Shown: positions 1,902 through 37,815 of the stretch, one piece after another
How positions within the stretch are numbered: the first letter of the stretch is position 1
How the letters are laid out: the number at the start of each line of letters is the position of its first letter
Source: Dethiosulfovibrio faecalis
GTDB lineage: Bacteria > Synergistota > Synergistia > Synergistales > Dethiosulfovibrionaceae
Length of the DNA stretch: 59,943 nt
Direction of reading: 5' to 3'
NCBI RefSeq assembly: GCF_021568795.1
Contig: NZ_JAKGUE010000015.1
Coordinates: 1-59,943 of the forward strand
Notes under the pieces: generated by a model
Told to the model about the DNA's origin: nothing
Seen by the model: only the letters and a program-made list of their open reading frames with translations
Database searches by the model: none
Position numbers and translations under genes: made by a program

Positions 1902-3774
1902 GGACAGCCCCTCCTTTAAACCTCATTAACCTGGCGGAGTTGAAAACCACCGCTAAAGAAGTTCCACCATGTAAGATAGCAGCGGCTATCGGATGCAATA
2001 CTCCTACAGCCCCTAGAATCATGGACAAAGTTATAGCTATGAGAGCAAAATGCAGATTTTGTCTCATGATGGTCAGACTCTCTTTGGCAAGATCCATCAC
2101 AAGAGGAATCTTCGATATATCGTCTTTCATCAACGCTATCGATGACGAAGATATGGCGATACCGCTTCCGGCAGCTCCCATCGCAATGGAAAGATCTCCC
2201 GCGGAAAGAGCGGGACCGTCGTTAACGCCGTCTCCGACTACCGCAACGATCTCACCCTTTTCTTTTAACTCCGAAACATAATCCATCTTTTGATGCGGCA
2301 ACATCCCGGACTCCCAAAAAGACACTCCTATCGCCTCGGAGACCCTTTCGACCACCGTTTTTCTGTCTCCCGACAGAAGAATGATTTTATCGACTCCTCG
2401 GTTCCTTATGTCGAGAAGGGATGACTTTACGTCGTCCTTTACTCTATCTTCAAGATATATCTCTCCAGCAAAGACACCGTCCACGGCGACAAACAATACA
2501 CTTTGCCCAAAGTGGCTATTTTCTATGTCGGGAACATCAACGCCAGAGGATAAAATCCAAGACCGTCTCCCCACCATTACAGATCTACCATCCACTTTTC
2601 CCAAAACTCCCATTCCGTGAACTTCTTTCATCGCCTCGGTAGGAAGAAAATCCAATCCCATAAAGCTCGCTTTTTCACAGAGAGATCTCGCGATCGGATG
2701 ACTTGAATCCTTTTCCAAGGAACAAGCTAAAGAAAGAAGCCTCTTCTTATTTATGGGATCACATGAAGAGATTTCCATAACCTCTAGATGACCGGTGGTA
2801 ACGGTTCCGGTCTTGTCGAGAACTATCGTCGTAAGTCTCTCGGCTACCTCGAGATGGGATACATCCTTTATTAGAACCCCCAATCGAGCAGCCACTCCAA
2901 GTAAGGCCACAACCGCGGTAGGTCCAGCCAAAAGAATGGAGCAAGGACACGCTACGACCACCATCGAAACCACTCTATCCAAATCACCGGTGACAAAGAA
3001 AACCGCTCCGGAAAGTAGCATCACCACCGGCACATACCACCTGGCGTAACGATCTATCATTCTCATAACAGGAGTACGAGATTTTTCCGCATCGGAAATC
3101 ATTTTCTGTACCTTTCCCAAGGTCGTCTCGGACCCCACCGACGTCACTCGACAGATAACCGTTCCGGTCAAATTGACCGTCCCAGCATAGACGTCGTCGC
3201 CTCCTTTTTTCTCAGCAGGTAGGGATTCTCCCGTAATAGTCGATTCGTTAATCGAAGTCTCTCCATTCAGGACTACTCCGTCGGCAGGAACCCTCTCCCC
3301 CGGGATGATCCTGAGTTCATCTCCGACGACAAGATCTCCCGCTTCTACGTTAAGCCACACCCCATCGCGGAAAACCGTTCCCTTAGGAGGTTTCAAATCC
3401 AGGAGCTCTTTCAGACTCTCCCTCGCTCCTCTCGCAGAACGTCCTTCCAACAATGCGGAAAGCACAATTACAAAGGAAATAGTGGCGGAAGTTATAAAAC
3501 GCCCCGACACGAAAGTAGCTGTAACACCTAAAGCGGCCAGTTCGTTCATTTCCGACGATTCTTCGAAAAGCTCTCTAACGGCTCTCAAGATAAGAGGGGT
3601 TCCCATAAATACAGCGGCTCCCATCGAAAGCAGGGACGTTCTCTCTCCATAACCATATATCGAGATGGAAAAAAGCGACGCGATCAAAAGACATCCTCCA
3701 ACAAAAAAGAAGAAAAACCCCCCTAAAGACCGTTCTCCTCCTTCGACTATTTTTCTAGCAAAATCATGAGCCAT
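1891..3774 (-). CDS. P1B-type heavy-metal-translocating P-type ATPase, short 6-TM form without N-terminal HMA domain
   Basis: Motifs present: DKTGT (LDKTGTVTTG), TGES, CPC in TM4 (ACPCSILLAGP), GDGVNDGPAL hinge, and HGGTS in the last TM. The ORF-track start at 3894 is probably N-extended. Start refined to MAHDF at 3774, with a GGAGGA RBS 6 nt upstream. Confidence 0.85.
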   Translation of the reverse strand: MAHDFARKIVEGGERSLGGFFFFFVGGCLLIASLFSISIYGYGERTSLLSMGAAVFMGTPLILRAVRELFEESSEMNELAALGVTATFVSGRFITSATISFVIVLSALLEGRSARGARESLKELLDLKPPKGTVFRDGVWLNVEAGDLVVGDELRIIPGERVPADGVVLNGETSINESTITGESLPAEKKGGDDVYAGTVNLTGTVICRVTSVGSETTLGKVQKMISDAEKSRTPVMRMIDRYARWYVPVVMLLSGAVFFVTGDLDRVVSMVVVACPCSILLAGPTAVVALLGVAARLGVLIKDVSHLEVAERLTTIVLDKTGTVTTGHLEVMEISSCDPINKKRLLSLACSLEKDSSHPIARSLCEKASFMGLDFLPTEAMKEVHGMGVLGKVDGRSVMVGRRSWILSSGVDVPDIENSHFGQSVLFVAVDGVFAGEIYLEDRVKDDVKSSLLDIRNRGVDKIILLSGDRKTVVERVSEAIGVSFWESGMLPHQKMDYVSELKEKGEIVAVVGDGVNDGPALSAGDLSIAMGAAGSGIAISSSSIALMKDDISKIPLVMDLAKESLTIMRQNLHFALIAITLSMILGAVGVLHPIAAAILHGGTSLAVVFNSARLMRFKGGAVLDV

Positions 3775-4169: not shown

Positions 4170-6322
4170 CCACCGTAGCCCTGGCGGGAAATCCGAACTC
4201 GGGAAAGACGACACTCTTCAACGGTCTGACCGGAGCCAGACAACACGTCGGCAACTATCCGGGAGTGACGGTGGAACACAAAAGGGGAACCTACAATCAC
4301 GACGGTATATCGGTGGAGGTCGAGGACCTTCCGGGAATATACTCTCTCTCCGCCTACTCCGCCGAGGAGGAGGTAGCCAGGGATTTCCTTATCCGACAGA
4401 CGCCGGACGTGGTGATCGACATAGTCGACTCCTCCAATCTAGAGAGGAACCTGTACCTGTCGGTCCAGCTGAAGGAGATGGGCCTTCCGGTATGCCTGGC
4501 ATTGAACATGATGGACGTGGCCGAGTCGAGAGGTATGGAGATAGACACGGACAAGCTGTCTTCTCTAATGAGAACCCCGGTGGTCCCCATAGTCGCCAGA
4601 AAATCCGAGGGAATCCACGAGATGATGAATCGGGCCCTGGAGATAGCAGGAAAGGACCCGGAGCCTTTTAAGATCTCCTACGGCCCCGATATCGACCCGG
4701 TTCTGGACGAGATGGCCAGGGCTATAGACCAGGACCCGATATTGGACGAGGCGATAAGGCCGAGATGGTCAGCTCTGAAGTATCTCGAAGGGGACGAGAC
4801 TATAAAGATCTCCATAGCGGAGAGAGCCCCGGAGCTGGAGAAAAAACTTAACGGCATGGCCGAAACTCTGGACTCCCACTTGAGAGCCACACTGGACACT
4901 TACGCGGAGGCCTTAATAGCGGACCATCGTTACGGGTATATAAAATCGATCCTCCAGCAAGGCGTTCTGATATACAGAAAGGACAGAGAGGCCAAGAGCG
5001 TGTCCGACAGGATAGACGCCATAGTGACCCACCGTTTCGTGGGCCCCATAGTTATGCTCGCCGTCCTGGGGACCCTTTACCATATAACCTTCGCCTACAG
5101 CGAGATACCGGTGGGATGGTTCGAGAGCTTTTTCGGGTGGATAGGATCTCTGGCGAACGATTATATGTCTGAAGGACCGTTGAAATCGATGGTAATGTCG
5201 GGAGTGATAGACGGGGTCGGAGGTGTTATGGGATTCGTTCCCCTCATATTCCTGATGTTTCTCGGGATATCCTTCTTGGAGGACACCGGATATCTGGCAA
5301 GGGTGGCTTTCATGCTGGACAGGGTCTTCAGAGTTTTCGGACTACATGGCAGTTCGGTGATGCCTTTCATAATCTCAGGAGGCATCGCCGGAGGATGCGC
5401 CGTTCCAGGAGTCATGGCGGCCAGAACGATAAAGTCGCCCAAGGAACGATTGGCCACCTTACTGACCGTTCCCTTCATGAACTGCGGGGCGAAGCTGCCG
5501 GTGTTCGCCCTATTGATAGGGGTTTTCTTCCCTGAAGGGGAAACCCGAATGATGCTTCTGATAACGGCAATATCGTGGATAGGAGCCATGTTGGCCGCCC
5601 GGCTTCTCCGTTCGACGATCCTTCGAGGGGAGACCACTCCCTTTGTGATGGAGCTGCCAACCTACCGTTTCCCCACCTTTCGAGGACTTCTGATACACAC
5701 ATGGGAGAGAACATGGCAATACATAAAGAAAGCCGGCACCGTCATCTTGGGGATATCGATACTTCTATGGGCGATGATGACCTATCCCGGACTGGACGAA
5801 AAGGCTACAGTCAAGTTCGAGAACATGAGGGAAAAGGTCTCGGACGAACTGTCTCAGGAAAAGCGGACCAAGATACTGTCAGAGATAGACGGAATGGAGG
5901 CCCAGGAGGCCCTGCGGCGTTCCTACGCCGGGCGAATCGGGACCGCTTTGGAGAAAGTAACCTCTTGGGCCGGGTTCGACTGGAGGGACAACATCGCACT
6001 TGTCGGAGGTTTCGCCGCCAAAGAGGTCGTAGTGTCGACGCTTGGGACGGCTTATTCCCTAGGCGAGGTAGATCCGGAGGAAAGCGGCGGTCTGGCATCC
6101 ATAATAGAGAGGTCTCCAGACTGGTCGCCCCTCAAAGCATTGGCGCTGATAATATTCACCATGTTCTACGCCCCATGTTTCGTAACCGTGGTCTGCATCG
6201 CCAAGGAGGCCGGCTCATGGAAATGGGCGGCCTTCTCCATGACGTTCAATACCCTTTTGGCCTATCTGTTGGCGGTGGCGGTCTATCAGGGAGGGGCGTT
6301 TATACAGTCCATAGGAGGGTAG
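4166..6322 (+). CDS. feoB: Ferrous iron transporter FeoB (N-terminal G domain + polytopic membrane domain)
   Basis: G1 motif GNPNSGKTTLFN, 718 aa, typical FeoB architecture. Confidence 0.95.
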   Translation: MTTVALAGNPNSGKTTLFNGLTGARQHVGNYPGVTVEHKRGTYNHDGISVEVEDLPGIYSLSAYSAEEEVARDFLIRQTPDVVIDIVDSSNLERNLYLSVQLKEMGLPVCLALNMMDVAESRGMEIDTDKLSSLMRTPVVPIVARKSEGIHEMMNRALEIAGKDPEPFKISYGPDIDPVLDEMARAIDQDPILDEAIRPRWSALKYLEGDETIKISIAERAPELEKKLNGMAETLDSHLRATLDTYAEALIADHRYGYIKSILQQGVLIYRKDREAKSVSDRIDAIVTHRFVGPIVMLAVLGTLYHITFAYSEIPVGWFESFFGWIGSLANDYMSEGPLKSMVMSGVIDGVGGVMGFVPLIFLMFLGISFLEDTGYLARVAFMLDRVFRVFGLHGSSVMPFIISGGIAGGCAVPGVMAARTIKSPKERLATLLTVPFMNCGAKLPVFALLIGVFFPEGETRMMLLITAISWIGAMLAARLLRSTILRGETTPFVMELPTYRFPTFRGLLIHTWERTWQYIKKAGTVILGISILLWAMMTYPGLDEKATVKFENMREKVSDELSQEKRTKILSEIDGMEAQEALRRSYAGRIGTALEKVTSWAGFDWRDNIALVGGFAAKEVVVSTLGTAYSLGEVDPEESGGLASIIERSPDWSPLKALALIIFTMFYAPCFVTVVCIAKEAGSWKWAAFSMTFNTLLAYLLAVAVYQGGAFIQSIGG

Positions 6323-23257: not shown

Positions 23258-23376
23258 CTCCCTTCGAAATATATATCAGCCTATAATGATAGCACGAAAC
23301 AGGGATCTTGTAGTACCAAAAAGACGAAATCGACGATAGACTTTTAGGAGAAAACACTACGACGCTAAGGGGATGG

Positions 23377-24115: not shown

Positions 24116-25309
24116 CTATTTCTCGAGAGCCATGATCTGGTCCATATCCTTGTCTCCCCGGCCGGACAGGTTGACCAGGAGGATCTCGTCGGAACCCATC
24201 CGGGGTAGCCTCTTTATCGCATATGCCAGGGCGTGGGAGCTTTCGAGAGCCGGTATTATCCCCTCGGTTCGACAGAGAAGATGAAAGGCATCGAGGGCCT
24301 CCTCATCTGTAACGGCCACATAGGTAGCCCTGCCGCTGTCCTTGAGGTAGGAGTGCTCCGGGCCCACTCCGGGGTAGTCCAATCCGGCGGAGATAGAATA
24401 CACCGGAGCGGGATCTCCGTTTTCGTCGGTGAGGACGTAACTCTTGAAACCGTGTATCATGCCAGGAGATCCTACGACGAGGGTGGCTGCATGCTCTCCC
24501 GTCTCCAGCCCCTTACCGGCTGGCTCCACCCCTGTTATAGCCACAGAGGCGTCGTCGAGAAAACCGGAGAAAAGACCGATGGCGTTGCTGCCACCTCCGA
24601 CGCAGGCCACTATCTCGTCGGGTAGACGGCCCTCTCTGTCCAGTATCTGCTGTCGGGCCTCTTTGCCTATGATGCTCTGAAAATGACGGACCATGGAAGG
24701 ATAGGGAGCGGGCCCCACCGCCGACCCGAGAAGGTAGAAAGCCTCGGGATCCTCGACGTAGGCGTTAAGGGCGGCGTCAACTGCGTCCTTCAGGACTCCC
24801 TGTCCCTGGGTCACCGACACCACCTTAGCCCCTAGCAGCTTCATCCTGCTGACGTTGGGAGCCTGGCGTGCTACGTCCACGGCTCCCATATAGACCACGC
24901 ATTCCATCCCCATCAGGGCCGCCACAGTGGCGGAGGCGGTTCCATGCATACCCGCACCGGTCTCGGCTATGAGACGGGTCTTTCCCATCCTTTTGGCCAA
25001 CAGGGCCTGTCCTATGGCGTTGTTTATCTTGTGGGCTCCGGTATGGTTCAGGTCCTCCCTTTTCAGAAATAGACGGCCCCCTCCAAGTTTATCTTCGAGG
25101 TTAAGACACTCGGTAATCGCGGAGGGACGCCCTACGTACTCCCTCATGAGACGCATATATTCCCTCTCGAACTCCGGGTCCGACGCGGCATCCAGGAAGG
25201 CCTCGGAAAGCTCCTCCAAGGGCCTCTCCAACGACTCCGGGACGAATCTACCTCCAAAAGCTCCATAGTATCCTTTTTTAGCGGCGTTATCGACGGTCGT
25301 TACGGTCAT
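24116..25309 (-). CDS. trpB: Tryptophan synthase beta chain (TrpB1-type), solitary
   Basis: [20 protein letters not shown] (PLP-Lys), GGGSNAIG; 397 aa. Strong GGAGGAG RBS. No trpA or other trp genes adjacent. Confidence 0.95.
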
Positions 25310-25344
25310 TTAAATCTCCTCCATATCTCTAAAATTTGGACCCG

Positions 25345-25386
25345 AATAAAGAAAGGGCCGCTCCCCCTACCAGAGGGGCGCGGCCC
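25345..25386 (-). terminator. Second strong hairpin + U-run in the trpB leader (possible additional terminator or pause site)
   Basis: Minus strand reads GGGCCGCGCCCCT-ctggt-AGGGGGAGCGGCCC followed by TTTCTTTATT. Confidence 0.5.
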
Positions 25387-25390
25387 TTAA

Positions 25391-25423
25391 AGAAAAAGCC
25401 GCGGCAGCGTCTGCCACCGCGGC
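25391..25423 (-). terminator. Attenuator terminator (segments 3:4) of the trpB leader
   Basis: Minus strand reads GCCGCGGTGGCAG-acg-CTGCCGCGGC followed by TTTTTCTTT. Its 5-prime arm CGCGGTGG can alternatively pair with CCACCGCG just after the leader-peptide stop. Confidence 0.6.
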
Positions 25424-25451
25424 TGAAAGCACAGCCTAAGACGCGGTGGAC

Positions 25452-25508
25452 CTAGGTCCACCACCACCAGCAAAGCATCGAATTGTCAGTCATGGGTTTA
25501 AAGTACAT
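25452..25508 (-). CDS. Putative trp leader peptide MYFKPMTDNSMLCWWWWT (four tandem Trp codons)
   Basis: Read directly from the sequence: ATG TAC TTT AAA CCC ATG ACT GAC AAT TCG ATG CTT TGC TGG TGG TGG TGG ACC TAG on the minus strand. An in-frame internal ATG would give MLCWWWWT. Too short to appear in the ORF track. Confidence 0.55.
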   Translation of the reverse strand: MYFKPMTDNSMLCWWWWT

Positions 25509-25541
25509 AGCCTTCCACGGCCTCTCGATGAATTTCGGAAT

Positions 25542-25570
25542 ATAATACACCTCTTCAAGCCTCCGGTCAA
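25542..25570 (-). promoter_or_regulatory. Near-consensus sigma-70 promoter for the trp leader-trpB transcript
   Basis: Minus strand TTGACC-17 nt-TATTAT, located between the MFS stop and the leader peptide. Confidence 0.5.
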
Positions 25571-25580
25571 CGACAGGAGG

Positions 25581-26879
25581 TCAAATCAGCCCCTTTTTTC
25601 TGTATATCGGCTCGGCCAGACTCCATAGGAGGTCGCCCCTCTTGAGCAAAACCACCCCTATCAGGAGACAGACCGCCCCTCCCATGGCCAACGTGGCCCT
25701 GGCTCCGATGAAAGAGGCCACCGTCCCTGCCACGAGGCTTCCGATAGGGGCGGTTCCCGTCAGGGAAACCACGTAGAGGGACATCACCCTGCTCCTCTTG
25801 TCCTCTTCCACCAAGGTCTGTATCAACGTGTTGCCCGCCACCAAAACCGACACCATGCCGAACCCCACTGCGATTATAAGCAATATCGACATAGGAGCCC
25901 AGAGAGAGAGGGAGAAAGCGGCCAAGGAGATGCCGAAGAAAGAAAGAGAGATGGCCATAACCCTCATGAGGCCCACCGGGGTCTTCCTGACGGCCAGCCT
26001 TATCGATCCGGCCAGGGCTCCGAGCCCGGACGCACCGGTCAACAGACCAAGCAGTGTGGGACCGCCGTGCAGGATCTCCTTGGCGAATATCGGCAAAAGG
26101 ACCAGATAGGGCAAACCGGCAAAGCTCAGTAGAGCCAGAGATATCAGGACGTCCCTTATGGGAAGAAAGGAACGGACGTAACTGATGCCGGAGACAAATC
26201 CCTCCCAAAAGGGCTCCCGCTCCCGAGAAACCTCCTGAGGACGCAGCCGGAGAGCCATCAAAGCCGCCAAGGTGGCCAGATAACAGGCGCTGTTTATACC
26301 GAAACATATCCCCTCGCCGAAGGCGGCTATGCAAAACCCCGCTACCGATGGGCCTATCAGTCGGGCGACGTTGAACAGAGAGGAGTTGAGCGCCACAGCG
26401 TTTCCCAGATCCTCAGGCCGATCCACGAGCTGAATGACGAAGGTCTGACGGGCCGGGAGCTCGAAAGCGTTCACCACGCCCAATAAAACCCCTAGTGCCA
26501 AAACGTGTATATAATTGACTGTTCCGGTAAGGGTCAATCCGGCAAGCACTCCGGCGTGAACCATGCATAGAGTCTGGCAGATCACCATCAGACGCCTCAG
26601 GTCCCAGCGTTCCATCAAGACCCCCGCAAAGGTTGAAAGGAATAACAACGGAATCTGACTGGCGAAATCCACGGCTCCTAACAGAAAAGCCGAGTCGGTC
26701 AGACGATATACCAGCCACCCCATAGCGACCCTTTGAATCCAAAAACCAGTCAGAGAAACGCCCTGCCCTGTGAAAAAAAGCCTGTAATTCCTCGATCCAA
26801 GGGCGGAAAACGCCCCTATCTTCACAAAAGACATCAAGATTCCCCCAATCTCGATTATCAAACCAGAACATGATAACAT
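25581..26879 (-). CDS. MFS transporter
   Basis: 432 aa, 12 predicted TM helices, MFS-like loop motifs. Confidence 0.8.
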   Translation of the reverse strand: MLSCSGLIIEIGGILMSFVKIGAFSALGSRNYRLFFTGQGVSLTGFWIQRVAMGWLVYRLTDSAFLLGAVDFASQIPLLFLSTFAGVLMERWDLRRLMVICQTLCMVHAGVLAGLTLTGTVNYIHVLALGVLLGVVNAFELPARQTFVIQLVDRPEDLGNAVALNSSLFNVARLIGPSVAGFCIAAFGEGICFGINSACYLATLAALMALRLRPQEVSREREPFWEGFVSGISYVRSFLPIRDVLISLALLSFAGLPYLVLLPIFAKEILHGGPTLLGLLTGASGLGALAGSIRLAVRKTPVGLMRVMAISLSFFGISLAAFSLSLWAPMSILLIIAVGFGMVSVLVAGNTLIQTLVEEDKRSRVMSLYVVSLTGTAPIGSLVAGTVASFIGARATLAMGGAVCLLIGVVLLKRGDLLWSLAEPIYRKKGLI

Positions 26880-28229: not shown

Positions 28230-28289
28230 GGTAGAATGGAGTCTCCATCGGCACATGCCGACGAGAAGAAGGATAACGGAGGAGATCTC

Positions 28290-28655
28290 ATGCTGCTAAG
28301 AAAGGAATTCACCTTCGACGCCGCCCACAGGCTCGAGAGGTACAGAGGAAAATGCGAGGCCCTTCACGGTCACACCTACAGATTGGCCGTCACCTTGGAC
28401 GGGCGCAGAGACGACGATGATATGGTTTTCGACTTCACCGAGCTGAAACGGGTCGTGTCGGAAAAGGTCCTGACCAAGCTGGATCACTCCTACCTAAACG
28501 ACGTGATGGATCAGCCTACGGCGGAGAACATAGCCCTATGGATATGGAGCAAACTGGACGAATCGGTAAAAAAACCAAACTGCGAGCTACACTCCGTACA
28601 GGTCTGGGAGACCGCGACGAGCTCCGTGATAGTGTTCCGAGAGGACGTGGAGTAA
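28290..28655 (+). CDS. 6-pyruvoyl-tetrahydropterin synthase family protein (QueD/PTPS; Cys+Glu active-site variant consistent with PTPS-III)
   Basis: CEALHGHTYRL zinc-binding HGH motif preceded by Cys-Glu. 122 aa from MLLRK, with a GGAGGAG RBS. Confidence 0.8.
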   Translation: MLLRKEFTFDAAHRLERYRGKCEALHGHTYRLAVTLDGRRDDDDMVFDFTELKRVVSEKVLTKLDHSYLNDVMDQPTAENIALWIWSKLDESVKKPNCELHSVQVWETATSSVIVFREDVE

Positions 28656-28657
28656 CC

Positions 28658-29878
28658 ATGACGGCCTGGTTTCACCGTTTCAAATCTACGACGGAACTGA
28701 AGAAAACTCTGGAGGAAATAGGCTGCGACCCAGGAGCTCTGCCCTATTTCGACGACCGGAGGGATCTGACGGCCCTCAGGATATCCGACGTAGACACCAG
28801 AGCGGCCAACGCCCTCAAACAGGAGATGCTCTCCCGCGGTGGAGATGTGGCGGTCCATCGTCACGCCATAGACAGAGGAGTCGAACGCTGCGACTGTCTC
28901 CTGTTCGGAACGGACAAACAGATAAACCATCTCGCGGAAAAGCTGGCCGTCATGCCCTATTGGGGACTGGACCAGGTCCGAAGAGAGATACTGAAGGCCA
29001 TGGCGGGGAAGAGGAAGAAAAGGCATCTTCTGACCCTGCCGGGAGACAGAGTACTACAGCTGGGAGACAGGACCAAGCTCATGGCCATAGTTAACCTCAC
29101 GGACGACTCCTTTTTCTCCAGCAGCCGAGCCGGTTCGACCTCGGAGTGCCTGAAAAGGGTGTCGACCATGATCGAGGACGGGGCGGAAATGCTGGACCTG
29201 GGAGCCGAGTCCACCAGACCGGGTTCGCTTCCTGCGGAGACCGAAACGGAGATAGGTCGACTGGTACCGGCTGTGGAATCCATAAGGAAGGAGTTTCCTC
29301 ACATTCCCATATCGATAGATACCACCAAGTCGGAGGTAGCCCGAGCCTGCGTCGAAGCCGGAGCGGACATACTGAACGACATATCGGGACTGGGATTCGA
29401 TCCGAAGCTGGCATCGGTGGCGGCGACCTCAGGAACTCCGCTGGTGATAATGCACATGAAAGGGGTCCCCAGAACGATGCAGAGAGAACCCCATTACGGA
29501 TGTCTCCAGAAGGAGATATGCGATTATTTTCAGGAGCGGACGGATCTGGCTACTAAAGCCGGAGTTCCCGAGGGGCAGATAATCCTGGACCCCGGAATAG
29601 GCTTCGGAAAGACGGCATCCCACAACTTAACCCTTCTCTCCCACGACGAGTTCTTCCGGTCGCGGGGATATCCGATTCTCATAGGCCATTCCCGAAAAAG
29701 CGTATTCGGAGCGGTCCTCAAGGGGGCTCCCCCGGAGGAGCGAATGGAAGCCACACTGGCAGGGACGGCTCTATGCGCCTGGCAGGGAGTGGATATCGTC
29801 AGGGTACACGACGTCAAGGCCAACCGTCGTGTACTGGACACGATAGAGGCGATGAAAGACCCGGATAGGCTAGATTGA
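28658..29878 (+). CDS. folP: Dihydropteroate synthase with ~125-aa N-terminal extension
   Basis: Pterin-binding domain: IVNLTDDSFF, ILDLGAESTRPG, SIDT, NDISG, GFGK. Start at MTAWF, 3 nt after the queD stop. Confidence 0.85.
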   Translation: MTAWFHRFKSTTELKKTLEEIGCDPGALPYFDDRRDLTALRISDVDTRAANALKQEMLSRGGDVAVHRHAIDRGVERCDCLLFGTDKQINHLAEKLAVMPYWGLDQVRREILKAMAGKRKKRHLLTLPGDRVLQLGDRTKLMAIVNLTDDSFFSSSRAGSTSECLKRVSTMIEDGAEMLDLGAESTRPGSLPAETETEIGRLVPAVESIRKEFPHIPISIDTTKSEVARACVEAGADILNDISGLGFDPKLASVAATSGTPLVIMHMKGVPRTMQREPHYGCLQKEICDYFQERTDLATKAGVPEGQIILDPGIGFGKTASHNLTLLSHDEFFRSRGYPILIGHSRKSVFGAVLKGAPPEERMEATLAGTALCAWQGVDIVRVHDVKANRRVLDTIEAMKDPDRLD

Positions 29879-31336
29879 TCAGATCTCTCCGAACAACCAG
29901 CCCTCCAAGGTGATCGGCCTGCCGGGACGAAGCCCCTCCATCTCCCTTCGCAGATCGCCGAGGAGGGCCGCTCTCTCCGCGAAAGCGTTGTGTCTGTGGA
30001 TGCTCTCGAAGTTCTCCTGTCTGGCGAGGACGAAAACCCCGTCGGGAAGGTCGGGAGAGACCTCCACCACGTTTCGCAGCATCTCCCTCACGACGTCCTC
30101 GACAAATCGGGGATTACTGTGAGCCTTGTTGACCACGAAAAACTCGTCCGGTCTTTTGAGAAGCTCGTATATCTCGGAACTCATGGACGCCTCGGCCAGG
30201 TGAACCAGGTTCTCCGCCCTTATGGTCCCCGCACCGCCGATCATCAGTGTGGCCCTCCCCCTCTGGTTGTGGGACGCCAGGGGCAACACGTCTACGATAC
30301 GCTCCGCCTCTTCCTCACCGTACCCCTGGGATATCAACAACCCTTTGGAATGGGCTCGGACCATCTCCTGGGCGCAGGGACATACGGTCAGACCGTCTAC
30401 CTCCACCCCTGATATCGTTCGACATACATTTCCATCGCAGGCGGATATACCTATGAAATTGTAGATCTCCTGGGTCGTCTTGCCCGATATGGGTGCGTGC
30501 TTTTTCAGGGGGAAATGGGCCTTTATCCGGACCTCCGACCTAAGAGCCTCCTGCCGCTCCATCACAGACGAGGCCAGACGCTCCGCCATGGTCTCTATGT
30601 CGGGAGCGACGGAACCGGCTGCGTCCTCCGCCGCCTGTTCCAATATCTCGCTGAAACGAGACATATGGACGCCGGCTCTTGCACCGTCGAGATCAACGAA
30701 CAGGTCCATGGTCGCATAGAAGAGGGAGACCTTGCCCTCCGTCTCGAGACGTATTATCCTCTCCAGGTCGGTCACACCGACCCGTCCCAAAAAAAGGGGA
30801 ACCTCGGGAACGCCTTTCTGCACATCCCTATCGAGGGAAAATCGAAGGGATCTCTCCACCTTGGCTACCCCTTTGGCGTCCACCAGATCCCGCAGAACGG
30901 AGACGGTCTTCCCTAGGACGGGATGGACCAGCCCGGGGGCTATCTCGGCGAGAGGCACCAGCACGAAGGCCCTCTCCTGCATCCTGGGATGGGGAACGGT
31001 CAGTTTGTCATCTTCCAGGACCAGGTCGTCGTACATTATCAGGTCGACGTCTATAGGTCTCGGTCCGTTCCTGAAGTTGACGGTCCTACCCATCCGCTGT
31101 TCGATCCATTTTGCCAGATGAAGGACCTCCATCGGAGACAGGTCCGTGAGAACCTCGCAGGCACCGTTGAGAAAGAGGGGTTGATCCTCGTATCCGACCG
31201 GCTCCGTCTCGTAGAACGACGAGACCGCCACGACCTCCACCTTACCCTGAAGATATTGAAGCGCCTGTAGAATATTGCCCTGACGGTCGCCCAGGTTGGC
31301 TCCAAGGGCCAGAAAAACCCTGTGTTTGCGATTCAT
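29879..31336 (-). CDS. Bifunctional fusion: N-terminal HPPK (FolK) + C-terminal type-2 GTP cyclohydrolase I (FolE2/MptA, DUF198)
   Basis: N-terminal LALGANLGD, ETEPVG, RPIDVDL, HPRMQERAFVLVPL (HPPK). C-terminal GVHMSRF...CPCAQEM region (FolE2-like). 485 aa. Confidence 0.7.
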   Translation of the reverse strand: MNRKHRVFLALGANLGDRQGNILQALQYLQGKVEVVAVSSFYETEPVGYEDQPLFLNGACEVLTDLSPMEVLHLAKWIEQRMGRTVNFRNGPRPIDVDLIMYDDLVLEDDKLTVPHPRMQERAFVLVPLAEIAPGLVHPVLGKTVSVLRDLVDAKGVAKVERSLRFSLDRDVQKGVPEVPLFLGRVGVTDLERIIRLETEGKVSLFYATMDLFVDLDGARAGVHMSRFSEILEQAAEDAAGSVAPDIETMAERLASSVMERQEALRSEVRIKAHFPLKKHAPISGKTTQEIYNFIGISACDGNVCRTISGVEVDGLTVCPCAQEMVRAHSKGLLISQGYGEEEAERIVDVLPLASHNQRGRATLMIGGAGTIRAENLVHLAEASMSSEIYELLKRPDEFFVVNKAHSNPRFVEDVVREMLRNVVEVSPDLPDGVFVLARQENFESIHRHNAFAERAALLGDLRREMEGLRPGRPITLEGWLFGEI

Positions 31337-37728: not shown

Positions 37729-37757
37729 TTGCATTTTGAACTAATATTGCGTATAAT
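37729..37757 (+). promoter_or_regulatory. Consensus-like sigma-70 promoter for the AGCS-glutaminase operon
   Basis: TTGCAT-17 nt-TATAAT in an AT-rich intergenic region. Confidence 0.55.
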
Positions 37758-37815
37758 GCCCTGGCGTTTCGAGAAATATCTACTTTATTATTATCCATAA
37801 TTGGGAGATATATAG

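Follow-up and report, generated by a model that had tools for sequence, protein, structure and literature searches.

A predicted tryptophan leader-peptide attenuator with two terminator-like hairpins upstream of solitary trpB genes in Synergistota

Background

The locus described here raises the question of how a stand-alone trpB gene could be coupled to the supply of tryptophan. The gene, which codes for a tryptophan synthase beta chain, lies in Dethiosulfovibrio faecalis (Synergistota; assembly GCF_021568795.1) on contig NZ_JAKGUE010000015.1, of which we analyzed a stretch of 59,943 nucleotides (hereafter the window; all coordinates are those of the window). An initial annotation, made from the letters of this stretch, had proposed that trpB is preceded by a classical leader-peptide attenuator. 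Conservation, covariation and the geometry of the ribosome footprint in 13 distinct leaders from Synergistota support this proposal, and we consider it likely that the element, which is on the minus strand, is a ribosome-mediated attenuator that senses charged tRNA-Trp and controls the stand-alone trpB. They also draw attention to a second terminator-like hairpin, which a single sensing event may control together with the first.

Results and discussion

A leader ORF with tandem tryptophan codons and alternative hairpins

The open reading frame (ORF) upstream of trpB, MYFKPMTDNSMLCWWWWT, has further in-frame ATGs at 25493 and 25478 and ends in the residues CWWWWT, directly followed by a UAG stop codon (Table 1). 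Its four UGG codons form the single (TGG)4 on either strand of the window, against an expectation of 0.019 from the frequency of TGG; the short ORF that the initial annotation had described is thus present, and its judgment that the tandem tryptophan codons are non-random holds. The same can be said of the near-consensus promoter, TTGACC-17-TATTAT, which matches the consensus at 10 of 12 positions; it is the only promoter-like site that a consensus scan found on the minus strand between 24000 and 27000. It leaves a 5' untranslated region of about 27 nt, and both of its boxes are kept in relatives of the Dethiosulfovibrio group (related loci L161, L001, L163 and L164). The strong ribosome-binding site claimed for trpB corresponds to a GGAGGAG motif. 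With scores of 583 bits for TIGR00263 (cut-off 392) and of only 170 bits for the TrpB2-type model TIGR01415, the product is assigned to the TrpB1 type. On the same strand its 5' neighbor is an MFS_3 transporter gene that ends at 25581, and its 3' neighbor is a convergent NUDIX gene; thus trpB stands alone at this locus, in line with its earlier description as a stand-alone trpB1.

The tryptophan codons run into a perfect 18-nt palindrome, GGTGGACCTAGGTCCACC, as the initial annotation had noted, and this folds into a 9-bp hairpin, 1:2, of GUGGUGGAC and GUCCACCGC with a CUAG loop (-17.3 kcal/mol, z = -3.3). Segment 1 of this hairpin consists of Trp codons 2-4 plus ACC, and the UAG stop codon sits within the loop. 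Segment 2 can alternatively pair with segment 3 (CCACCGCG/CGCGGUGG), with a complementarity that extends to CCACCGC(G) at 25449-25442 and (C)GCGGUGG at 25421-25414. The resulting 2:3 hairpin, the putative antiterminator, has an energy of -19.9 kcal/mol and stacks on a small internal hairpin, GGCUG/CAGCC. Segment 3 in turn pairs with segment 4 in a GC-rich stem of 12 bp followed by the U-run UUUUCUUU, and this terminator 1 was recovered both by a consensus scan and by folding. The three helices that had been proposed from the letters (1:2, 2:3 and 3:4) can therefore each form in predicted folds of the leader RNA.

Conservation of the leader across Synergistota

Relatives were obtained by a TrpB protein search and contig look-ups, which together gave 13 distinct Synergistota trpB leaders from Dethiosulfovibrio, Aminobacterium, Thermovirga, Aminirod and several metagenome-assembled genomes (MAGs). 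The TrpB protein of the window is 96% identical to that on syntenic JGI metagenome contigs, 86% identical to that of Dethiosulfovibrio salsuginis, and 71-77% identical to those of Aminobacterium, Thermovirga, Aminirod, Aminithiophilus and several Synergistales/Thermovirgaceae MAGs. A scan of JGI metagenome contigs with TrpB drew in no close Synergistota relatives, its best match being 72% identical and from the same MAG as locus L002 (see below). At every Synergistota locus that was fetched trpB is solitary, and outside the Dethiosulfovibrio group its neighbors are unrelated (CheW/chemotaxis genes, Rrf2, aconitase, an AMP-ligase, an HD-domain protein and others), so that the constant part of these loci is trpB together with its upstream region.

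Within this upstream region each of the 13 leaders contains an ORF of 17-26 codons with a run of Trp codons near its end. The C-termini in the relatives, each followed directly by the stop codon, read FWWWWT, FWWWRI, VWWWWP, FFWWWRP, FWWWPL, FWWWRS, FWWWR, LLWWRTWQGPSR and FWWWPF; the N-terminal residues vary, and what is constant is the frame, the length and the W-run. Hairpin 1:2, terminator 1 and the terminator-like hairpin 2 described below fold in every one of them, and the 2:3 hairpin is available throughout at -17 to -26 kcal/mol. The comparison of relatives that the annotation had called for thus finds both the tandem UGG codons and the stems conserved in 13 of 13 leaders, with compensatory changes.

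The spacing between these elements is nearly fixed. From the first Trp codon to the first nucleotide of segment 2 that is used in 2:3 the distance is 19-20 nt in all 13 leaders, and in 12 of them the stop codon lies in or at the 1:2 loop, 4-5 nt before segment 2 (a UAG at the identical position in 11, a UAA in L170 of Thermovirga). The exception is L171, in which the ORF continues through segment 2 and a UAG stands at the end of that segment, an arrangement that gives the same outcome. A ribosome usually covers about 12-15 nt on the 3' side of its P site. Given this reach, a ribosome on Trp codons 1-3 would open segment 1 and spare segment 2, and one at the stop codon would cover segment 2.

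Two further features of the leader ORFs were observed. The stop codon is UAG in 12 of the 13 Synergistota leaders and UAA once, a preference that could reflect either the RNA structure alone or a preference for RF1. In the window, the complementary hexamers CAUCGA (25530-25525) and UCGAUG (25481-25476), both on the minus strand, flank the ribosome-binding region and start codon of the leader. They are invariant in the window, L001, L161, L163 and L164 and are paired in the minimum-free-energy fold, but as both sides are invariant they offer no covariation. They may form a pause helix or one that occludes the start site, or UCGAUG may be kept merely as codons (N-S-M-L).

Covariation of the paired segments

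We evaluated the proposed helices without an alignment, by comparing the duplex energy of each segment with its own partner to that with the partners from other lineages, across 8 lineages. Own partners were favored with p = 1e-4 for each of 1:2, 3:4 and 5:6 (hairpin 2), and with p = 0.013 for 2:3, as against p = 0.6-0.8 for the negative controls 2:5, 1:4 and 2:6. Pair tables that use the invariant GC[CU]GCG core within segment 3 as an anchor revealed a triple formed by segments 2, 3 and 4; it reads G-C-G in Dethiosulfovibrio, Aminirod, Aminobacterium and Thermovirga having A-U-A, with the intermediates A-U.G and G.U.G, and double changes occur at three further positions of the segment 2/3/4 triples.

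A covariance model that spans the leader from W-run through terminator 1 has a single match in the window (25390-25472, 85 bits) and recovers all Synergistota leaders. In the alignment of 17 leaders fitted to this model, which unlike the alignment-free tests is biased towards the structure of the model, 80.4% of the cells pair against 67% in shuffles, and the covariation score is 0.386, compared with 0.186 (in both cases none of 500 shuffles attained the observed value); controls in which the alignment was slid fall to 36-61% paired cells. Double-sided changes were seen in 12 of 21 pairs, namely 5 of 9 in hairpin 1:2 and 7 of 12 in terminator 1. These column-wise counts cover 1:2 and 3:4, as segment 2 is shifted by one column from lineage to lineage. 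Alignments of the leaders made with MAFFT alone were structurally inconsistent and gave a meaningless RNAalifold consensus, and were replaced by the duplex tests, the pair tables and the model-fitted alignment.

Predicted mode of attenuation

At the level of sequence the leader thus combines an ORF of regulatory codons that is predicted to be translated, an intrinsic terminator, an antiterminator that shares a strand with it, a matching spacing, and a downstream gene, trpB, that belongs to the pathway of the amino acid sensed. We propose that transcription would start from the TTGACC/TATTAT promoter and that a ribosome would translate the 18-codon leader. When tryptophan is plentiful, the ribosome would reach the UAG in the 1:2 loop and mask segment 2, which starts 4-5 nt past this codon. 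Segment 3 would then be left to pair with segment 4, RNA polymerase would stop at terminator 1, and any polymerases that escape it would run into terminator 2 (5:6). If Trp-tRNA is in short supply, the ribosome would stall on the UGG run 19-20 nt before segment 2, melting segment 1 and leaving segment 2 free to pair with segment 3, and this antiterminator would block terminator 1. The freed segment 4 with its U-tail could then pair with segment 5, the 5' arm of terminator 2, so that one stall would disarm both terminators and trpB would be transcribed. Termination is accordingly predicted to depend on tryptophan, and the likely role of trpB would be to make tryptophan from indole and serine when tryptophan is short.

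A second terminator-like hairpin and a possible relay

The last step of this scheme concerns a feature that lies beyond the region covered by the initial annotation. The GC-rich terminator with its U-run that had been recognized there, terminator 1, stands; the implied layout with a single terminator does not, since a second GC-rich hairpin with its own U-run (5:6; -29 kcal/mol, z = -3.25) is found at 25388-25344, between terminator 1 and the ribosome-binding site of trpB. A GC-rich hairpin followed by a U-run occupies this place in all 13 Synergistota leaders and is as conserved as terminator 1.

Segment 4, which comprises the 3' arm of terminator 1 and its tail, is also complementary to segment 5, the 5' arm of terminator 2, and the predicted 4:5 hairpin has an energy of -14.9 kcal/mol in the window and of -11 to -18 kcal/mol across all 13 leaders. 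In each of these leaders 1:2, 2:3, 3:4, 4:5 and 5:6 are all predicted to be able to form. The partners change between lineages: CGCGGCUU with AAGGGCCGCG in Dethiosulfovibrio, AGCCCCUUAA with UUAAGGGGCU in Thermovirga, and AGCCCCUUUUUCUUU with AAAGAAAAAG(U)GGGCU in Aminobacterium (L169). In the last of these the complementarity is preserved though terminator 2 lies about 40 nt further away, and a G within the A-tract matches a C within the U-tail, keeping an internal C-G pair. Thermovirga (L170), in which terminator 1 has a poor U-tail (UUAAUAUUG), has the most perfect 4:5 pairing, of 10 bp, a combination in keeping with a leader that relays its signal to terminator 2. The comparison of own with cross-lineage duplexes (8 lineages) gives p = 0.017 for 4:5, comparable to 2:3, and position +1 of segment 5 takes part in a G-C-G versus A-U-A triple covariation. 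Moreover, when ranked among 68 unrelated terminator 5' arms taken from these loci, the own 4:5 pairing of every lineage was better than 81-100% of them (median top 10%). Taken as a whole, the statistical support for 4:5 is moderate.

This makes plausible a relay of six segments, in which 1:2, 3:4 and 5:6 would constitute the off state and 2:3 and 4:5 the on state. We tentatively extend this, at somewhat less than even chances, to the claim that in all 13 Synergistota leaders a single stall flips five mutually exclusive helices and disarms two terminators in series, giving a trpB of indole-to-tryptophan salvage a tight off state and full inducibility, and that, in view of the candidate Phe/Tyr leader of Aminobacterium (see below), attenuation of aromatic salvage may perhaps be wider in the phylum.

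Several observations weigh against the scheme as drawn. At equilibrium 3:4 (-23.4 kcal/mol) is more stable than 2:3 (-19.9 kcal/mol), and 5:6 (-27.6 kcal/mol) more so than 4:5 (-14.9 kcal/mol); as both terminators outweigh their alternative pairings, the switch would have to be kinetic. In the trp attenuator of E. coli the terminator is likewise more stable than the alternative pairing. The Shine-Dalgarno sequences of the leader ORF are not ideal (GGAAGG 2 nt and GAGAGG 12 nt before the ATG), and the lineages compared in the duplex tests are not phylogenetically independent. The 4:5 complementarity is in part generic to GC-rich terminator arms, the cross-lineage mean being -13.3 against -16.3 for own pairs, and in the window and several lineages the upper 5 bp of terminator 2 lie outside the 4:5 pairing and could still nucleate.

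The most serious alternative differs only in its reading of terminator 2. It holds that the leader is a four-segment attenuator only and that hairpin 2 escapes control by 4:5, acting instead as a constitutive partial terminator that lowers basal expression, as a protective 5' stem of the read-through mRNA, or as the 3' end of a stable leader RNA. We regard this as possible but rather unlikely. The excess stability of 5:6 over 4:5, the unblocked top of the terminator 2 stem and the considerable generic complementarity among terminator arms all speak for it, as does the fact that one terminator suffices in L002 and in most trpB leaders of Desulfovibrionaceae. On the other hand, an efficient terminator at this place that is not regulated would block the only visible promoter, and hairpin 2 with its U-run has been retained in 13 of 13 Synergistota leaders. 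The alternative is also opposed by the 4:5 complementarity itself, which is lineage-specific and exceeds the controls, survives the 40-nt insertion in L169, and is strongest precisely in L170 with its poor terminator 1 U-tail.

Other explanations for the leader

A different sensor, a nascent-chain arrest peptide like TnaC, could be imagined in place of or besides stalling on hungry codons, with a motif F-W-W-W-R/P-x-stop that responds to free tryptophan. Consistent with it, 0-2 codons separate the W-run from the stop in 12 of the 13 leaders, the residue before the run is mostly F and the one after it R or P, and all leaders but one stop at UAG. However, TnaC acts with a Rho-dependent spacer on a catabolic operon induced by free tryptophan, whereas the leaders described here have two intrinsic terminator-like hairpins in place of such a spacer and precede a biosynthetic gene, the product of which makes tryptophan and for which induction by tryptophan would be illogical. 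Furthermore, the conservation of UUCUGGUGGUGG and of UAG is also accounted for by the 1:2 pairing of the RNA, and a ribosome arrested at the stop codon would likewise cover segment 2 and lead to termination, adding nothing that is required. We therefore consider an arrest peptide very improbable, although the conserved context F-WWW-R/P-stop might reflect some contribution of the peptide.

Another tryptophan-sensing RNA, either a T-box riboswitch whose specifier is UGG or a leader of the TRAP type, has a negligible chance of explaining the element: GGUGGACC...CCACCGCG superficially resembles the T-box motif GGUGGNACCGCG, but no T-box (RF00230) was matched at the gathering threshold in the window and 16 related loci, or up to E = 10 in the leader, the roughly 80 nt from the W-run to terminator 1 are too short for one, and the longest chain of (G/U)AG triplets is 2, against the 9-11 triplets spaced 2-3 nt apart of the Bacillus-type TRAP leader. 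The remaining explanation, a chance ORF followed by ordinary terminators of the upstream MFS gene and without regulatory meaning, has in its favor that the leader starts just 3' of the MFS stop codon and that a consensus scan found no terminator between this gene and the trpB promoter, but it is effectively refuted by the comparative data, given the rarity of (TGG)4, the covariation, the fixed geometry and the fact that the W-run ORF and hairpins accompany trpB across genera in which the upstream genes differ (CheW, Rrf2, aconitase, HD-domain protein).

Relationship to known attenuators

No Rfam family covers the attenuator at the gathering threshold in the whole window or the 16 related loci. 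The enterobacterial Trp_leader family (RF00513) in particular was unmatched at gathering in the same set and up to E = 10 in the region 25200-25700, and the sub-threshold matches within the leader (SR6 antitoxin, BcKCsr2, mmgR and others) reflect its two generic terminator hairpins. The likeness to the trpL leader of E. coli and other enterobacteria is nevertheless close in layout: both have tandem UGG codons near the end of a short ORF, a stop codon close by segment 2, hairpins 1:2, 2:3 and 3:4 that exclude one another, and an intrinsic terminator that exceeds the antiterminator in stability, so that the switch is kinetic. They differ in that trpL of E. coli has two UGG codons and precedes trpEDCBA, whereas the Synergistota leaders have three or four, precede a lone trpB and carry the second terminator-like hairpin; homology between the two is not detectable in sequence or structure, RF00513 being unmatched to E = 10. 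The his leader of Salmonella and E. coli forms an alternating chain of A:B, C:D and E:F versus B:C and D:E. Like the proposed relay it involves more than four segments in chained exclusive helices, by which a stall at the 5' end reaches the last hairpin, but it senses another amino acid and only its last hairpin terminates, whereas both 3:4 and 5:6 of the Synergistota leaders are terminator-like.

Among other tryptophan leaders, attenuators with conserved complementary triples have been predicted before trpB1EDGC and trpB2A of Corynebacterium diphtheriae (PMC1262725). The actinobacterial attenuators (Corynebacterium and Streptomyces; PMC1262725) share with those described here the double or triple UGG codons, GC-rich poly-U terminators, complementary triples and trpB-first operons, but belong to an unrelated lineage, have more trp genes per operon and no reported tandem terminator, a comparison that stays at the level of predictions. 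The trpL leader of Sinorhizobium meliloti (rnTrpL/peTrpL) is likewise a Trp leader-peptide attenuator of a single trp gene, in that case trpE(G) rather than trpB; when terminated it yields a discrete small RNA, and trans-acting roles of the RNA and the peptide are documented (PMC6614838, PMC7298713).

The initial annotation was aware of no description of ribosome-mediated trp attenuation outside Proteobacteria and a few Actinobacteria. Vitreschak and colleagues reportedly predicted leader-peptide attenuators in some Bacteroidetes and Thermotogales in 2004. Naville and Gautheret (2010; PMC2965389) considered leader peptides to be known only in Proteobacteria and Actinobacteria and added Firmicutes, in several members of which His leaders are predicted (PMC9413887). 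For leader-peptide attenuators in general the taxonomic limit was thus somewhat overstated, and the part of it that stands is that we found nothing on Synergistota or on these trpB leaders. A search of full-text literature returned no description of Trp leaders in Synergistota or Desulfovibrio, a weak absence as most subscription journals are outside its coverage; the study of delta-proteobacteria by Rodionov et al. (2004) contains no tryptophan section.

Gene context

The coordinates of the leader, of trpB and of a nearby folate/pterin cluster (28236-31336) are collected in Table 1. Contigs L161 and L163, which are syntenic, carry this cluster as well.

Table 1. Features of the trpB leader and its surroundings in the window
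Feature	Position	Strand	Details
Sigma-70-type promoter	25570-25542	-	TTGACC 25570-25565, 17-nt spacer, TATTAT 25547-25542
Leader ORF	25508-25452	-	18 codons; ATG 25508; UAG stop 25454-25452
Four Trp codons (UGG x4)	25469-25458	-	near 3' end of leader ORF
Hairpin 1:2	25464-25443	-	segment 1 25464-25456; loop CUAG 25455-25452; segment 2 25451-25443
Antiterminator 2:3 (putative)	25449-25414	-	CCACCGC 25449-25443 with GCGGUGG 25420-25414
Terminator 1 (3:4)	25424-25389	-	AGCCGCGGUGGC-AGAC-GCUGCCGCGGCU 25424-25397; U-run 25396-25389
Proposed 4:5 pairing (predicted)	25403-25379	-	CGCGGCUUUU 25403-25394 with AAGGGCCGCG 25388-25379
Terminator-like hairpin 2 (5:6)	25388-25344	-	AAGGGCCGC-G-CCCCU-CUGGUA-GGGGG-A-GCGGCCCUU 25388-25353; U-run UCUUUAUU
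Shine-Dalgarno of trpB	25322-25316	-	GGAGGAG, 6 nt 5' of ATG at 25309
trpB	25309-24116	-	tryptophan synthase beta chain, TrpB1 type, 397 aa, monocistronic
PTPS	28236-28655		folate/pterin cluster
446-aa protein with Pterin_bind (DHPS) domain	28538-29878		folate/pterin cluster
Fused HPPK and GTP cyclohydrolase FolE2	29879-31336	-	485 aa; folate/pterin cluster

Elsewhere around these loci, a TwoAYGGAY RNA (RF01731; 58.3 bits, gathering score 43) occupies 5967-6120 (+) of L164 from D. salsuginis, where it precedes a Peripla_BP_2/FecCD/ABC transporter operon that adjoins trpB; the equivalent spacer of the window, at about 23258-23376, gave no Rfam match at gathering. In the window, a further ORF with a YYY run, MPWRFEKYLLYYYP, spans 37756-37800 (+) and ends 16 nt before a Na:alanine symporter gene. 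We judged it to be a chance occurrence because its ATG overlaps a TATAAT box, the region is AT-rich and neither a terminator nor alternative hairpins are present.

Wider distribution

W-run leaders are also found about 120-220 nt 5' of solitary trpB genes of Desulfovibrionaceae (L003-L006, L008, L009, L011-L014, L034 and L051; from Mailhella, Desulfovibrio and Desulfonatronovibrionaceae MAGs), with peptide ends such as MNTNASRTLSCMWWWPC and ...NWWWRS before the stop, and 5' of the solitary trpB of L002/L081, a MAG labelled Alphaproteobacteria. The flanks of these genes are again unrelated (HypD/HypE, UvrB, Usp). The leaders have the 1:2 hairpin and a terminator with a CCGCGG core, mostly a single one, with two in tandem in L013, and although outside its training set they are matched by the Synergistota-trained model at 21-37 bits. 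Common descent with the Synergistota leaders is not established: the TrpB proteins are about 63% identical to that of the window, and the likeness of segment 3 is partly perhaps forced by the UGG codons. Horizontal transfer from Desulfovibrionaceae is not supported, as this identity is barely closer than that to many other phyla.

In several of these and of the Synergistota leaders (L165, L169, L003, L013, L014, L034 and L051) the leader ATG is located only about 6-12 nt past a good -10 hexamer (TTGACA-17-...). Such a spacing points to translation of the leader peptides from leaderless or near-leaderless transcripts in several Synergistota and in most Desulfovibrionaceae leaders.

A separate observation comes from Aminobacterium L169, in which the trpB-leader model has a weak match (25.8 bits, E ~0.002) at 2022-2170 (+), 1.8 kb upstream of the trpB leader. 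It comprises a short ORF, MFLDVIASSNCFFEYYYASEGPHWRASA, of the form FF.YYY with its UAG in a hairpin loop, followed by a strong terminator, AGGGCCGGG...CCCGGCCC plus U7 (fold of -58.5 kcal/mol, z = -3.4). Just 3' of it, at 2204-3451, is an AMP-binding/AMP-binding_C_2 gene for a PaaK-like aryl-acetate-CoA ligase. We regard the element as a candidate attenuator by which a Phe/Tyr leader peptide would control a gene of aromatic salvage.

Conclusions

The leaders described here involve no new principle; they constitute a clean new RNA family with an architectural twist in the form of tandem terminators. As the covariance model separates true sites cleanly from the background, the family is ready-made for annotation. 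Its conserved tandem terminator offers a natural test case for a chain of helices that controls two terminators by one sensor, and might provide a compact part for synthetic tight-off switches. Classical leader-peptide attenuation would thereby be extended to Synergistota, and probably to Desulfovibrionaceae, in neither of which we found a described case. A lone TrpB1 gene that is tied to the supply of Trp-tRNA is most simply understood as an indole-salvage enzyme, and such an annotation would bear on the exchange of indole and tryptophan in the anaerobic digesters and gut communities that these organisms inhabit.

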